Part shown: positions 36,440 through 42,400 of the stretch, one piece after another
How the letters are laid out: each line of letters starts with the position of its first letter
Numbering within the stretch: the stretch's first letter is position 1
NCBI RefSeq assembly: GCF_054482595.1
Contig: NZ_JBTHVH010000001.1
From: a plasmid
Reading direction: 5' to 3' (one strand)
DNA length: 64,000 nt
Position numbers: made by a program

Positions 36440-39400
36440 TGATGTTTTGAAAACGGTCACTGACCGCTTTTGTCTCTATAGTAATGCTAGAAAAGGTCGC
36501 CAGAACGGGCGACAGTATGTATTAAGCGCGGTAAAGGCCATGCTTGAAAGCAAGGAAACTCAGGAAGGTTTACGCCTTGGTGAGCTTTTCGGCTATTACG
36601 GTCACGGTCGCCGCCAGCTGACCGGCAAACTGGAAGTACCAGAAACCAGCGTGATCATGGTGGAAGGTCGCCCGGTCGTAATCGACAATGTTCCAGCGTG
36701 CCGAACAGTGGCTATATCTGTTGACGACAACGGCATCGTTACCCATACACAGGAAATTCTTAACACAGAGCCGGGTAAAATTGTTGCCGCGATGATCGAA
36801 AGCCGAGCTGGTGGCTGGAGCTGGGCCACTGGCGGGCGCGAGTCCGGGAAAATCGCTGTAACCACCAGCTTCCATGGTGTGGATTATGTGACAACGCCGA
36901 ACTATATCAGTCTGGATCATCCTGCCAGCGCCGGAATGTTTGAAAGCGCGGATTCTAAATCTTTACTGGCAGAGTCCCTGGCTGCGCATGGGTACTCCGA
37001 CGAGTCAGTGCAGGCCGTTATATCCCATTACGGCAAAATGGCTGAACTGGAAATGATGGTGGAGGCGACAGAGCGTACGGCAGAACTGGAAACCGCACTA
37101 CTCGAAAGCCAGGGCCGCCACCTCGAAGCAATGGCCAAGATCGCAGATGCTGAAGCGCGAATCGCTTTGCTGGAGGAAACAGCGGGTATCCGCGACGATG
37201 TGCTGGCAGCAATGCAAGACGAACTGGATAACCTCCCGATCTTCGTCTCCGCCGCCCAAAAAGACGCATTCCGCCTCAAAGAACCTAGTGATGCAAAAAT
37301 CGTTGCCACACTTTTCGAATCTCTGATCAAAGTTGGCGCACGTAACTTGCCTGTCACCAAGAAAATTAAGGAGGTTCCGCAAGCGTCTAACGTCCAGGCA
37401 CCGCGTGAGACAAGCATCATCTCGTTTAATAATTCAATCAATCCGTTTAAATAACCACCAAAAATAACCCCGGCGAGTGCCGGGGTTCTCGTTAACTATT
37501 ATCGACTTCGCCTGCGTGCCATATATTTGCGCACCGCGCGGCGTGGACAATCTGAAGCGGTTTCTTTCTGCTGCATCAATCTCGCGGCCATGCTCAAAAA
37601 TGTCAGGCACAGCCGAAGCCCGGCATACAATAGCGGTTCCAGTGGCCACGTTTCATTAAGCACATATACCGCCATGAAAATCGAGTCGAAAACTATCGCT
37701 GCCAGCGATAACTTCATTGTCGAAAGTCTGCGGAGCTGCCGGAGTTTATTCATTGACCAGTCCCGTCAGGCAAAGCTGGCGTTCTTTTTCACGGCGAATC
37801 TTTAAACCTCGCAGGGGCACGCCGTTACTGTTCACAAAATCAGGGAGATGGTTACACATATTCACCCATTCCCCTTTCTGCGCCCACTTGTGGATGGACG
37901 TTTCGACTCGCATGCCTCGCGCTTTGCTGTAGTAGGTCCGTAAGCTATTGCATCCCATATTGAATGCCGCGCTTGTCATTGCACTAAAGGCATTATCGGG
38001 CATGTCTTTGCCCCGGAAGTGCTGATTAATACAGCGTTCAGCGATCAGGATATTCTTTTCCCAATCAGCGGCGATTTGCTGGTCGGTTTTTCGCACACCC
38101 GGCGTTACCCCGTGTGTATTACCGATCCCGTCAGTCCATACCCCCGCCGGGCACATGTATGGATCACGTCGGCAACCTTCAGCGTTACCAATCAGCTCAA
38201 GCCCCGCCTGGTTGGTTCGCACATTGCCATTACCCATTACGATGGTAATCATCACCGCGATAGCGCAAATTGCACCGCCTCCTGCGGCTGTTTTTCCCTT
38301 CATAAAGACCTCATAAGCGAATTTTTACGCTCCAGGACAAACACCCATTCACAGCCAATACCGACTGACTCGATCCCTTTAGAAGGCACAGGATAATGCA
38401 AATCACTTGTTAGCTACGTTTCAAAGATATACATTATTGCTCTAATCATTTTATTTTATTAGGTAAGATAAGTGGCACAACGCGGTGTAAACAAAGTCAT
38501 CCTGATTGGTACCCTGGGGCAAGACCCGGAGATCAGGTATATACCAAATGGCGGAGCGGTCGGAAGACTAAGCATCGCAACAAATGAATCATGGCGCGAC
38601 AAGCAAACGGGCCAACAGAAAGAGCAAACAGAATGGCATAGAGTCGTTTTGTTCGGGAAACTTGCTGAAATTGCGAGTGAGTATTTACGAAAAGGTTCTC
38701 AGGTCTACATCGAAGGGAAACTTAAAACCCGTAAGTGGACAGATGACGCCGGTGTAGAACGTTACACGACGGAAATTATCGTCAACCAGGGCGGCACCAT
38801 GCAAATGATCGGCGCTCGCCGTGACGATTCACAGTCCTCAAATGGCTGGGGGCAATCGAACCAACCTCAAAACCACCAGCAATACAGTGGTGGCGGTAAA
38901 CCTCAGAGCAACGCCAATAACGAACCTCCAATGGACTTTGACGACGATATTCCGTTTTAGAGTTTATGAGTAAAAAACGACTGAAAGAAAAGCGGTGGTC
39001 AAGACGCCGACAAAAGCACGAACTCGCAAACAAACGCCAAAGTTGGCAATGGCACGCGCTTTTAACGAATAGAACACCCCGAGATATTGCTTTCGCTGGT
39101 GGGAAAACATTCCTAACCAACCTGAAGGCGCAATACATCAGTTTTTAAGCAGAGAAAAGACTATGACAGCACAAAATACTAAAACCATTCAATACCGCCT
39201 GCGTAATGGCCAGAGTGTAGAAGTGACCATCAATAATGATGGTGTACCTGGCGAAAAGGTTTCGATCTCTGATCTGGCTATCGAAAAAACCATCATGTGC
39301 CACCTTGGCTTTACTGAAGAAGTGAGCAAAAAGCATGGTGTAGCTATCTGGCGCACAATGGATACTGGCATGCGCAGATTCATTACTGCTCGTACCCCTG

Positions 39401-42400
39401 GTATGACCATGATGGACCTCATACAGATTGCGCCGCTGTTTGAGTGTGAACCTTTGGATGTATTCAGCAATCCAGCTATCTGCCAGCAGTTATATGGTGA
39501 GATGAAACTCGCGGTTACCCCCATTGTGCTGCATGAAGGATCGCTTGCTGGCGTATGGAAAGTAGAGCGAATTTCAAGCTACATGCCATTCCACATCCAT
39601 GTCAACGGCGTAATCGCAGGTGAAAATCAACCTGTTTCCGTTATAAAGTCAGACCTCAATCGCGCAATTCTTGAAGCAAGTTGTCGAGTTATCGGCCTGG
39701 GCAAACAGTCTTATGTTTCCTTCCCGGCTGGTCCTGAAGGCCCGGCAGAAATTCTGATTATGGATGCTGATCTGCTCTGGCAAATACAGTTTCTGATTGG
39801 CAAAAGCATCATCCGTGCTGAAGAACTCGATCAGTACATTACCTGCACGATGACGGATGAAGTCAAAAGTGTGGCTATAGCCAATGCCCGGAACCTGTGT
39901 CGTGCTGCATTAACAGAACCGCAAGAAAACATTCCAGAAGAAACAGAAAGTGACTAATAAAAACCCCGTCAGTTGGCGGGGAACTCCACGTCAAATGGCC
40001 AATTGTTATGTCAGCTAGCAGTTAAAGCGCCTAGTCATCATCTTTTAAAGAAGTCTTTTTAACTTACCTAAATTAGTGACACCTCCCGTTTTGCTTGCTA
40101 TTGTACGCATTCATGAATCTATTCATTAATCTATTCACAATAGTAATTAAAACTATGGCTATACATGCAACAACAATCCGTAATTTGCTCAATCAAGGTC
40201 CTATGACACCAAGACAATTGGTTGAAAGACTAGGTGTTAGCCAACCAACGATATCTAGAGCATTAAGAGATCTTGGTGATGAAATCGTTAGGATCGGAAA
40301 TGGAAGATCTATTCAATATGCTTTACGAGACTCTTTTAGAGGATTCGAATCAGTCCCCATTTATCGTATAACTGAAGAGGGGTGTATTTGCGTTCTTGGT
40401 ACTCTCATTCCGGTGAGGCCAGAAGGCTATGTTATGGTTGAGGAAGGGAAAAATAACAGGCATAGCGATGGGTTACCTTGGTGGTTATTTGATATGCGTC
40501 CACAAGGCTTCCTTGGAAGAGCATATGCATCAGCATATGCTCTTGAACTTAACCTTCCCTCAAATCCAGAGCAATGGTCAGATACTGACGTGATCAAAGC
40601 CTTACTTAAGCATGGGCATGATGTTGTTGGTAATTTGTTAATTGGAGAGCAAGCACGCACGCATTTTTTAGAGATGCAGCCTCCTGTTCCTGTTAATCGT
40701 GAAAGTGAATATCCTGTATTAGCTTTAGCTGCTGGTGAAGGTGATGTGCCCGGTTCATCTGCTGGAGGTGAACAACCCAAATTTTGTACTTTCACAGAGC
40801 GTGGACATGTATTAGTGAAATTCTCTGCGCCTAACGACACCCCTATAAGTGAGCGTTGGAGAGATCTCTTGTTTGCTGAACATCTCGCATTAAAAGTTCT
40901 GGGGGTAGAAACAGAAGTTTTTGATTATAACGGTCAGAGATTCTTGGAAATTCCCCGATTTGATCGTGTTGGTCAACTAGGTCGGGTAGGTGTATTCTCA
41001 CTTCGTGCACTTGATGCAGAATTTGTTGGGAATGCAAGAGCAACATGGCCCTTGCTGGTTAAAGAGTTGGTAAAAAATAAGTGCGTCCATCCTGATGCGA
41101 TTATTATAGCAACAAGGCTATGGTCTTTTGGTTTGCTAATAGGCAATACCGATATGCATAATGGTAACCTATCGTTTATTAGTAGCCACGGACGCCCATA
41201 TCATATTGCTCCAGCCTATGACATGTTACCTATGGGTTTTGCTCCACGCTCTGGGGGAGCAATATCTAATGAGCTTAGAAAAACAGCACTACCAGACTTT
41301 GTAAGTCGAAAAATATGGGATGAATCTCTTGAATTGGCTGAAAAATTTTATGCATTGGCCTGTGAGTCCGACAAATTCTCAGCTAACTTTACTCCATGTT
41401 TAGAAGCGCTACGCATCCACCTAGATGATTGTAAGATACGCATAGCCCGCCTGGCATAAACAACAAATCCCGCCGATTGGCGGGATTTCTTCAATATACG
41501 ATCTGGTCTGCATGATCACCAAAATCATCGTCGTCGTCCTCATCGCCACCATCTACTGCTGGCCAATCAACAAACCAGCCAGCGTAAAGATGCAGCGTTC
41601 GGAGAACATCACTTGCGGGAGCATCAAGGGTGTTAACGAATCCCATATAGCTATTGGGATTTGCCCCAGCTATGGCTTCAGCGATCATGTCCTCGGTAAT
41701 GTCACCGGAGATAATGCTTAAACGCCCGGAAACTTCTTCATTATCATCAAATTCGATAATGGCATCTCCGCCTAATGGCGCTGCGATTTTAATCTGCATT
41801 ATTTAGCTCCTTTGCCACACCTAATAACAGTTCCAGCAATCCGTCACCATTCATCAGTGATGCGGCAGCGGCCTCTTTGTCATGATACAACTGAAGAGCC
41901 ATAGAGAATACTTCCGTTGCTGACGTTTTGGAAATAGTCGGTGATTTCTGCCGAATTTTCCCGGTGTTACTTACTGAGGCTGGCGGGTATACCTTCGCCA
42001 TATAAATATTACTCAATCGAGATCTGAAGCACCATTCAGGCTTGCCACGCCCACCGATATTAACGAAAGATGGCTTATCCCCTTCAACATTGGCCTTCAG
42101 GAATGACCGGGCTTTCTCTAACAAACCAGGGTTACTGTACTCAAGATGATGACCCAGCTCGTGCCACAGTGCACTTGCATTTTCATCGTTCAAATTGACA
42201 GCAACAACACCATTAAGATTTGCATATGCCCTTCCCTGGTGGTGAACCACCTTTGATAAGGTCGATATTTTCCCGCCGGTCAGGCGATAAATATCAGCAA
42301 GTTCCTTGCGCAGGTCTATCCCACCACTCTGTCCAGCGCGGGCTTCTTCCACTTCTTCCGTGATAAAAGAGTCGGCCCACTCAAGAGCTTTTTCTTCAGA

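Follow-up and report, generated by a model that had tools for sequence, protein, structure and literature searches.

How is a potentially toxic protein kinase kept in check when it is encoded alone, with no partner antitoxin beside it? This question is raised by a gene located in a 64,000-nucleotide stretch of a plasmid contig (NCBI RefSeq assembly GCF_054482595.1, contig NZ_JBTHVH010000001.1; hereafter, the window) that comes from a P1-like phage-plasmid and carries, between the backbone genes isaA and hxr, a cassette with a single gene of the hipH (yjjJ) family. HipH kinases constitute clade X of the Hip kinase tree; the helix-turn-helix (HTH) domain of these proteins has been proposed to be one that "may" bind DNA, and the control of the kinase has been described as unknown (PMC8262856). 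Comparison of the locus with its homologs leads us to favor, as the likely explanation, a solitary HipH cargo kinase whose winged HTH would repress its own promoter through direct repeats located upstream of the gene and a further copy of the repeat within the coding sequence.

The preliminary description of this region, made from the DNA alone, recognized an open reading frame (ORF) that combines an HTH with HipA-type motifs, assigned it to the HipA/YjjJ family and pointed to a catalytic motif in it; these statements withstand profile searches and alignment. All the motifs quoted at the time are present in the 434-aa protein (LGVSQPTISRALRDLG, aa 26-41; SSAGGEQPKF, aa 201-210; IGNTDMHNGNLSF, aa 329-341; APAYDMLPM, aa 352-360), which matches positions 3-446 of the 446-position NCBIfam equivalog model NF007297 with 533.6 bits (cutoff 401), as well as the Pfam families HipA_C (2.9e-15), HTH_5 (29.5 bits, cutoff 22) and MarR_2 (28.7 bits, cutoff 27), the latter two at aa 4-43. 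The protein aligns collinearly with HipH of Escherichia coli K-12 (b4385; 35% identity, E = 6e-90), is 20% identical to E. coli HipA and, among the sequences in PDB (no HipH structure has been solved), best matches Legionella HipT, in the catalytic half (E = 7.5e-6). The residues corresponding to S150, D309, N314 and D332 of HipA (S202, D333, N338 and D356, respectively) are all conserved, and S201 and S202 are invariant in 10 diverse HipH proteins. The alignment behind an AlphaFold2 model was shallow (32 sequences, ~70% identity), and beyond the HTH the model gives weak support for the fold at best; at the head of the protein it shows three helices (5-12, 19-26 and 30-39) and two strands (44-47 and 54-58) with pLDDT of 75-88. 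In Foldseek searches, the N-terminus retrieved ArsR/SmtB-type repressors (root-mean-square deviation of 1.6-2.8 Å over 54-65 columns), and the body retrieved HipA, a HipT-like kinase (7wcf) and CtkA. Profile and alignment comparison shows that the predicted product joins, in one polypeptide, a winged HTH at the N-terminus, within the ~100-aa extension that marks the HipH family, to a Ser/Thr kinase core of the HipA type in which the predicted catalytic residues are intact, and its assignment to the HipH family is secure at the sequence level. The gene had been treated as unrecognized, but PGAP/RefSeq already names it yjjJ (WP_024192174.1), so it is not a new discovery; rather, the phage-plasmid carries a divergent member of the HipH family. 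The named relatives among the matches listed are all annotated as YjjJ or "phosphatidylinositol kinase", with one JGI entry labeled as an Lrp-family regulator.

An in-frame ATG at position 40113, inside the repeat array described below, is used by PGAP in one record (NZ_CM148631.1; positions 6154-7500 of our locus L092) and yields a 448-aa product; phrog_30447 has 448 positions, and the alignment of homologous N-termini favors the start at 40155. In the same record, the entire P1-like element is part of a chromosome sequence, owing either to integration or to an assembly artefact.

The gene is indeed solitary, as had been suggested. No hipB or HipB-like gene is adjacent to it: there is no such ORF between the hairpin at 39964-39981 and the start codon of hipH, and the flanking ORFs contain no Pfam HTH, so that the upstream, co-transcribed Xre-type hipB of the canonical type II hipBA modules is absent. 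Nor is any family of neighboring genes conserved in more than 8 of the ~78 homologous loci.

Immediately upstream of hipH, the sequence ATCTATTCA occurs at 40117-40125 and again at 40129-40137 (as AATCTATTCA-NN-AATCTATTCA, the pair spans 40116-40137). The preliminary description noticed this direct repeat and guessed that it could be an autoregulatory site. Both copies are as described, but they belong to a set of three units that recur every 12 bp (ATTCA at 40109, 40121 and 40133), a pattern that is found once in the window and in 0 of 100 shuffles; the guess itself has gained strong comparative backing, from the homologous loci, the intragenic copy and the covariation with the HipH helix. 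We collected 80 homologous loci from species-representative genomes and inspected the sequence upstream of each start codon. Of 79 loci, 65, spread over Gamma- and Betaproteobacteria, have ATTCA-N7-ATTCA no more than 110 nt ahead of hipH, and 48 of these have it in triple form, compared with no occurrence in the remaining 1.23 Mb of locus sequence on both strands; 11 of the 14 loci counted as misses have degenerate or separated copies. The unit has the consensus wwtATCTATTCA and a strict 12-bp period, usually with three copies, and is found in Enterobacterales, in many Betaproteobacteria and at hipH of E. coli K-12. The candidate promoter (Table 1), which is the only plus-strand promoter-like match upstream of hipH in the window, belongs to a layout that recurs in the homologous loci, with a -35 box, 17 nt, a -10 box and then the repeats. 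The array starts at or just after the -10-like hexamer, and a median of 5 nt separates its 3' end from the start codon; a bound protein would therefore occlude the -10 box and the transcription start. In the second plasmid allele of hipH, the CTATTCA cores of the units and the intragenic ATCTATTCA are kept amid surrounding non-coding DNA that differs by ~5%. A literature search retrieved no paper pairing yjjJ with the CTATTCA motif. The unit bears some resemblance to ARG-box half-sites and TorR boxes; identity with either is disfavored because of the direct 12-bp phasing and the covariation with the HipH helix.

The additional ATCTATTCA lies within hipH itself, in the codons for the wing of the HTH, where the choice among synonymous codons is strongly skewed. 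In homologs with 47-70% protein identity and gene G+C (GC) content of 0.43-0.74, the codon for I53 is ATT in 63 of 63 loci, compared with 377 of the 1030 Ile codons elsewhere in the same genes, and 65 of 66 loci use TCT or TCC for S52, compared with ~25% elsewhere. When all conserved codon columns of 42 non-redundant sequences were considered, the two that deviated most in codon usage over the whole gene were those of S52 (z = 11.3) and I53 (z = 8.6). The gap between the last upstream unit and the intragenic unit is also constrained: in 51 of 54 loci, it measures 164-168 or 176-178 bp. The K-12-type clade has RATRY in place of RSIQY and no intragenic site, with a distal upstream copy instead, and no consistent intragenic copies were detected in the other specificity classes defined below. 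There are further synonymous-codon outliers that do not match the operator unit, namely S104 (AGC in 30 of 34, z = 7.6; 40464-40466), Q21 (CAA in 32 of 34, z = 5.7) and L22 (CTC), which together occupy 40215-40220, and G15 (GGG; 40197-40199).

The three loci that lack any ATTCA-type repeat are exactly those in which the recognition helix of HipH is different, and therefore 80 further loci from divergent clades were sampled from metagenomes. Every helix class has its own repeat, in the form of tandem 12-bp units and a separated copy flanking the promoter. At least two copies of [CT]nATTCA are found in 69 of the 79 loci with the helix SQ[PA]T..R, which is the class of the window, and at least two of CGTT[TA]CA in 22 of the 24 with SR[AP]T[LM]MR. 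Counted in the same way, [CT]G[TA]TGCA goes with [IV][SN][RK][SA]TL.R (12 of 15 loci), TC[TG]T[CA]TCA with S.[PA]TLHR (5 of 10), TC[AG]AATCA or TCATAAC with S[TP][PA]TMVR (4 of 4) and TCAAAAC with STATLRR (2 of 2). Tabulated for these six classes, the 134 loci form a near-diagonal table, with off-diagonal counts of 0-1. An unlinked regulator is hard to reconcile with these data because the repeat tracks the HipH helix across classes.

Under the favored reading, the HTH of HipH would bind the three direct repeats that start at the -10 box of its own promoter, a step for which the comparative support is good, and would also bind the auxiliary 9-mer at codons 51-54, ~17 helical turns downstream; HipH would repress its own transcription by occlusion, possibly aided by looping. 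Such autorepression would keep a potentially toxic kinase low and buffered in the absence of a separate HipB-type antitoxin/repressor, with the fused domain taking the repressor role of HipB. Once de-repressed or overproduced, the kinase would, by analogy with K-12 HipH only, autophosphorylate in the Gly-rich loop, phosphorylate host proteins and slow or stop the growth of the lysogen. Auxiliary repressor operators inside coding DNA are known from the lac and gal systems, where O2 lies in lacZ and OI in galE. The arrangement predicted here is similar in that an operator at the promoter would be accompanied by a second copy ~170 bp downstream in the coding sequence, kept against codon preference; it differs in that the auxiliary site is in the gene of the repressor itself, within the codons of the DNA-binding wing.

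Comparison with the characterized Hip systems shows both common and distinct features. The window protein shares with E. coli HipA the kinase superfamily, the aligned catalytic residues and the top Foldseek matches, which are HipA structures; it differs from the HipBA system in that hipB is lacking and the HTH is fused in cis and is of the winged-helix (ArsR/MarR-like) rather than the Xre type. The operators of HipB are palindromic, unlike the 12-bp-period direct repeats in the window. HipBA is autoregulated by its HTH protein at the promoter (PMC8262856). HipT of the HipBST system (E. coli O127; Legionella HipT(Lp), 8ezr/7vkb) is the best sequence match among the solved structures, as noted above, and the pair of serines close to its Gly-rich loop is a feature shared with HipH kinases (PMC8262856); however, the window protein has no HipS or HipB partner and contains two parts that are absent from HipT, the HTH at the N-terminus and an intervening domain. 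K-12 HipH resembles the window protein in combining an N-terminal HTH extension with a HipA-type core (the two-serine Gly-rich loop and the catalytic and Mg-binding motifs), in passing the NF007297 cutoff, in being encoded by a monocistronic gene with no linked antitoxin and in the ATCTATTCA 12-bp repeats before the gene. By contrast, it is longer (443 vs 434 aa), shows no blastn similarity to the window gene at the DNA level, is encoded on the chromosome, between deoD and lplA, rather than on a phage-plasmid, and has its auxiliary copy distally upstream (RATRY) instead of within the RSIQY codons. K-12 HipH is a kinase that autophosphorylates, targets RpmE and CsrA and is toxic when overproduced; HipB rescues the cells, and mutations in the putative Mg2+- and ATP-binding domains lessened the toxicity (PMC9948734). 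Another study reported that its HTH is needed for toxicity, that the protein localizes to the nucleoid, has DNase activity and binds cyclic di-GMP (c-di-GMP), and that induction of hipH by c-di-GMP needs the native promoter (PMC11452175).

Table 1. Features of the hipH locus and its flanks in the window
Feature	Coordinates	Strand	Remarks
isaA	39163-39957	+	backbone gene, 264 aa, phrog_2326; 96% DNA identity to P1
Segment replacing the IS1 + isaB region of P1	39932-41492	+	in blastn against P1, homology stops at 39931 and restarts at 41493
Diverged backbone hairpin copy, CCCCGTC-AGTT-GGCGGGG	39964-39981	.	left of the cassette; compensatory stem change
Cassette proper	~39969-41456	+	in blastn against the empty site of SJ46, homology extends up to 39968 and again from 41457
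Candidate sigma-70 promoter	40076-40104	+	-35 GTGACA, 17-nt spacer, extended -10 TGcTATTGT
Putative HipH operator	40102-40137	+	three head-to-tail 12-bp units, gtacgcATTCA, tgaatctATTCA and ttaatctATTCA; starts at the end of the -10 box
hipH (yjjJ)-family gene	40155-41459	+	ATG at 40155, stop at 41459, 434 aa; N-terminal winged HTH + HipA-type Ser/Thr kinase core
Winged-HTH domain, aa 1-60	40155-40334	+	Pfam HTH_5/MarR_2, AlphaFold2 topology, Foldseek
Recognition helix VSQPTISRA, aa 28-36	40236-40262	+	
Intragenic unit ATCTATTCA	40307-40315	+	codons R51-S52-I53-Q54, HTH wing; 178 bp past the last upstream unit
Gly-rich loop GSSAGGEQPKF, aa 200-210	40752-40784	+	S202 aligns with the autophosphorylation site S150 of HipA
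Catalytic loop IGNTDMHNGNLSF (D333, H335, N338) and Mg-binding APAYDMLPM (D356)	41139-41234	+	invariant in two of our alignments (A1 and A4)
Bidirectional terminator AAATCCCGCC-GATT-GGCGGGATTT	41465-41488	.	10 perfect pairs, 4-nt loop; serves hipH and the convergent hxr
hxr	41491-41799	-	backbone gene, 102 aa, phrog_2292; not HipB-like

The element that carries the cassette has a Punavirus/IncY backbone: the gene order lyz-ssb-isaA ... hxr-ddrB is collinear with that of P1 at a DNA identity of at least 96% (96-99% over 38301-39931 and 41493-42200). With up to 3 mismatches allowed, 11 sites in the window match the P1 C1 operator consensus ATTGCTCTAATAAATTT (e.g., at 5251, 21407, 25212 and 38436), compared with 0.3 expected, in line with a P1-type immunity network that is intact; the hipH cassette contains none of them, the nearest being Op(ssb) at 38436-38452. 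The preliminary description placed the insertion between ssb and ddrB, in place of the genes that P1 has there. IS1 is indeed missing, but the immediate flanks are isaA and hxr, and relative to P1 only IS1 and isaB are lacking from the slot, whereas hxr is retained. That this is a slot for variable cargo, as also proposed, is borne out by other elements, many of which have it empty: P1 carries IS1 and isaB at this site, RCS47 carries ISSod13 and P7 carries nmpC, and in phage SJ46 and two P1-like plasmids of E. coli (loci L089 and L090) the isaA stop codon is followed by ~30 nt that amount to one hairpin and then by hxr. The isaA-hxr slot is variable region 2 of P1-like phage-plasmids (PMC9603915). 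It shares with the isaA-IS1-isaB region of P1 its position, low GC content and contents that vary between elements; in the window, the slot holds the hipH cassette instead of an insertion sequence (IS) element or resistance gene.

In plasmid p1493-4 (NZ_CP019075.1), the slot contains a different cargo, an ORF of 364 aa (positions 3401-4495 of our locus L091) that overlaps the isaA stop codon; its product has no Pfam match, belongs to phrog_5902 (function unassigned) and shows distant similarity to the terminase large subunit phrog_2 (3.5e-9). The layout of isaA also varies between elements, as seen from a comparison of the isaA regions of the window (38966-39957), P1 (positions 2091-3053 of its locus, L001) and SJ46 (1091-2725, L002). 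P1 encodes a single IsaA of 320 aa, and SJ46 has a 281-aa hypothetical gene and a 260-aa isaA; in the window and in most plasmids, a 60-aa Lys/Arg-rich ORF (38966-39148) is followed by the 264-aa isaA in another frame, and the window lacks ~684 bp that are present in SJ46 (1263-1946 of the SJ46 locus).

Both flanking genes were considered as potential partners of HipH and rejected. The 264-aa ORF upstream, for which the preliminary description envisaged a modulating role, is IsaA, a backbone gene product that is found in the same 264-aa form in plasmids without hipH and is thus not a candidate modulator or antitoxin. Hxr, which is labeled an Xre homolog in the P1 annotation, shows no BLASTP similarity to HipB, no Pfam match and no PDB match, and is also present in elements without hipH.

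The cassette is ~1.5 kb long and, in agreement with the AT-richness perceived at the outset, has a GC content of 41.9%, below that of the window (48.4%), of isaA (46.4%) and of ddrB (49.5%). The perfect 10-bp terminator that was considered the end of the inserted segment is a real hairpin, but it is backbone sequence, because the same hairpin is present at the empty isaA/hxr junctions of SJ46 and the two E. coli P1-like plasmids; it is ruled out as a part of the cassette. On the left side, the diverged copy of the hairpin has a T-tract in the minus direction only, and the plus strand continues as AACTCCAC (39964-39990), so that C1-controlled transcripts from the ssb promoter may run into hipH upon prophage induction. 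No transposase or target duplication was seen at the cassette. The last ~26 nt of isaA are diverged relative to both P1 and SJ46; together with the diverged left hairpin, this suggests, as far as can be judged from the sequences, that the cassette was acquired through recombination with a more distantly related element and not through transposition. In one sublineage of P1-like (IncY) phage-plasmids, the isaA-hxr hot spot holds the hipH cassette as a self-contained, monocistronic accessory cargo.

An identical 1.55-kb segment is present at full length in 29 plasmids of PLSDB (most of ~90-100 kb; one that was examined is typed as IncY), and the identical cassette is found in 24 of 5426 complete E. 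coli genomes. NZ_KX880944.1, which we take to be an mcr-1 IncY plasmid, is among the P1-like phage-plasmids with this cargo. Only ~10-15% of the P1-like elements carry it, and HipH homologs were detected in only 45 of 72,556 plasmids, the family being overwhelmingly chromosomal. In IMG/VR, 15 loci were identified, of which 6 represent the P1-type cassette. The nearest proteins beyond its own 90% cluster are ~72% identical and come from Pantoea, Gibbsiella, Serratia and Enterobacter. As a donor, the chromosomal yjjJ/hipH of E. coli showed no DNA similarity detectable with blastn, and a donor search with the left flank recovered the same plasmids only. A 75-kb viral contig (IMGVR_UViG_3300047494_000263) encodes a 484-aa HipH-like protein with 38% identity (positions 5986-7440 of our locus L105), next to genes for a DnaB helicase, an ERCC4 nuclease and GIY-YIG-like proteins, and may represent a second, independent phage-borne Hip kinase. 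A literature search found no paper that joins yjjJ with P1-like, IncY or phage-plasmid terms.

Several observations weigh against the favored explanation. The promoter-like matches in the region total the chance level, and the promoter match by itself does not rise above it; the AlphaFold2 model is poor for the kinase core, with a mean pLDDT of 62 and a TM of ~0.35. Owing to the shared ancestry of the homologous loci, P-values computed as if they were independent come out too small, and the helix and motif classes were set by eye on the same loci that were later tabulated, which makes the table post hoc and descriptive. The toxicity of K-12 HipH has been reported to be kinase-independent and ascribed to its DNase activity (PMC11452175), in conflict with the results on the Mg2+- and ATP-binding domain mutants (PMC9948734), and at 35% identity the substrates and toxicity of the window protein may differ from those of K-12 HipH. 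Furthermore, chromatin immunoprecipitation with exonuclease digestion (ChIP-exo) of myc-tagged K-12 YjjJ yielded no binding sites (PMC8464067), and the repeats are also part of the 5' untranslated region (UTR) of the mRNA, which leaves room for a role at the RNA level or for another regulator. An explanation along these lines, in which the repeats are real and conserved but are read by a different regulator or act at the RNA level, as an element of the 5' UTR and the start of the coding sequence that governs translation or stability, appears rather improbable to us. It would fit the ChIP-exo result, the location of the units in the transcribed leader, which often lacks a Shine-Dalgarno sequence and where they come so close to the start codon, and the response of hipH transcription to c-di-GMP via the promoter region; however, the repeat changes when, and only when, the recognition helix of HipH changes, in six classes, an Rfam scan of 39900-41560 gave a single match, over the terminator, with 22 bits vs a gathering score of 114 bits, and DNA binding accounts better for the strict 12-bp phasing and for the distal copies that other clades have upstream of their promoters.

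The other alternatives concern the purpose of the gene rather than its control. That HipH is an anti-phage effector of abortive infection or superinfection defense, released or activated by another phage and protecting the host population, is in our opinion unlikely. The presence of hipH as hot-spot cargo in a temperate phage-plasmid would suit such a role, as would the setting of the closest relatives outside P1-like elements (~71-72% identity), albeit as anecdotal support: hipH adjoins a P4-type integrase, Fic, AlpA and BrxR in one of them (L188), a 661-aa protein with TIR and PNP_UDP domains in another (L189) and a type I restriction-modification system with a McrB-like ATPase in the third (L190), and a 70%-identical relative from IMG/VR (L101) adjoins a prophage integrase. 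Toxin-antitoxin (TA) modules do act in bacteriophage defense, and the Stl-homologous antitoxins in the HipF and HipG families are perhaps regulated by proteins of attacking phages (PMC8262856). Yet three other relatives (L192-L194) reside in ordinary chromosomal settings (a cus operon, an rpoD operon and beside an AraC regulator), as does K-12 hipH, no sensor or partner gene is conserved, and tblastn detected no HipH homolog in 50,697 deposited phage genomes (INPHARED). The PADLOC-DB 2.0 matches are at the level of noise, with E of 1e-3 or weaker, the best one in the kinase region (PDC-M03A, E = 1.1e-3) covering ~30 aa around the catalytic loop and the others the HTH only. A plasmid-addiction module that works by post-segregational killing, with the HTH domain or autophosphorylation serving as an antitoxin in cis, would draw on the membership of the HipA family among type II TA systems, on the cis-acting antitoxin role that has been raised for the N-terminal extension (PMC8262856) and on a plasmid-borne hipBA reported as a plasmid stabilization system (PMC11487325). 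We consider it very unlikely because there is no labile partner: a single polypeptide offers no differential stability, and, moreover, most P1-like elements do without the cassette and the family is mostly chromosomal. The scarcity of the cassette among P1-like elements could, in turn, point to a functionless passenger undergoing decay, but this option is most improbable. The ORF is intact in both plasmid alleles, which are 98% identical at the protein level with a ratio of nonsynonymous to synonymous substitution rates (dN/dS) of 0.195, and hipH therefore appears to be maintained by purifying selection; in addition, all catalytic residues are retained, as are the operator cores and the intragenic unit in the second allele.

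If HipH is a solitary autorepressing kinase, its role for the phage-plasmid may be modulation of host physiology or tolerance, or abortive infection against other phages. The recognition helices of the window HipH (VSQPTISR) and of the chromosomal HipH of E. coli (ISQATFSR) both belong to the ATCTATTCA class, and cross-talk is therefore predicted between the plasmid and chromosomal genes. A broader proposition, which we put forward tentatively, is that HipH kinases in general are sequence-specific autorepressors with 12-bp-phased arrays at their promoters and an auxiliary operator, which in the clade of this cassette would lie among the very codons for the DNA-binding domain, that the helix and operator classes co-evolve, and that in a P1-like lysogen the plasmid and host toxins might form a cross-repressing circuit; if true, this would amount to cross-talk between a prophage and the persistence machinery of its host. 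An HTH acting as an autorepressor would also explain the requirement of the native promoter for the induction of hipH by c-di-GMP. HipH is the one Hip kinase of E. coli whose control has been described as unknown; the published mechanisms, a kinase on the one hand and a DNase with c-di-GMP acting as antitoxin on the other, disagree, and the repeats, the codon constraint and the covariation offer a concrete autorepressor hypothesis for it. The distribution of the cassette shows that P1-like phage-plasmids circulating in clinical and farm E. coli repeatedly carry a Hip-family toxin kinase.

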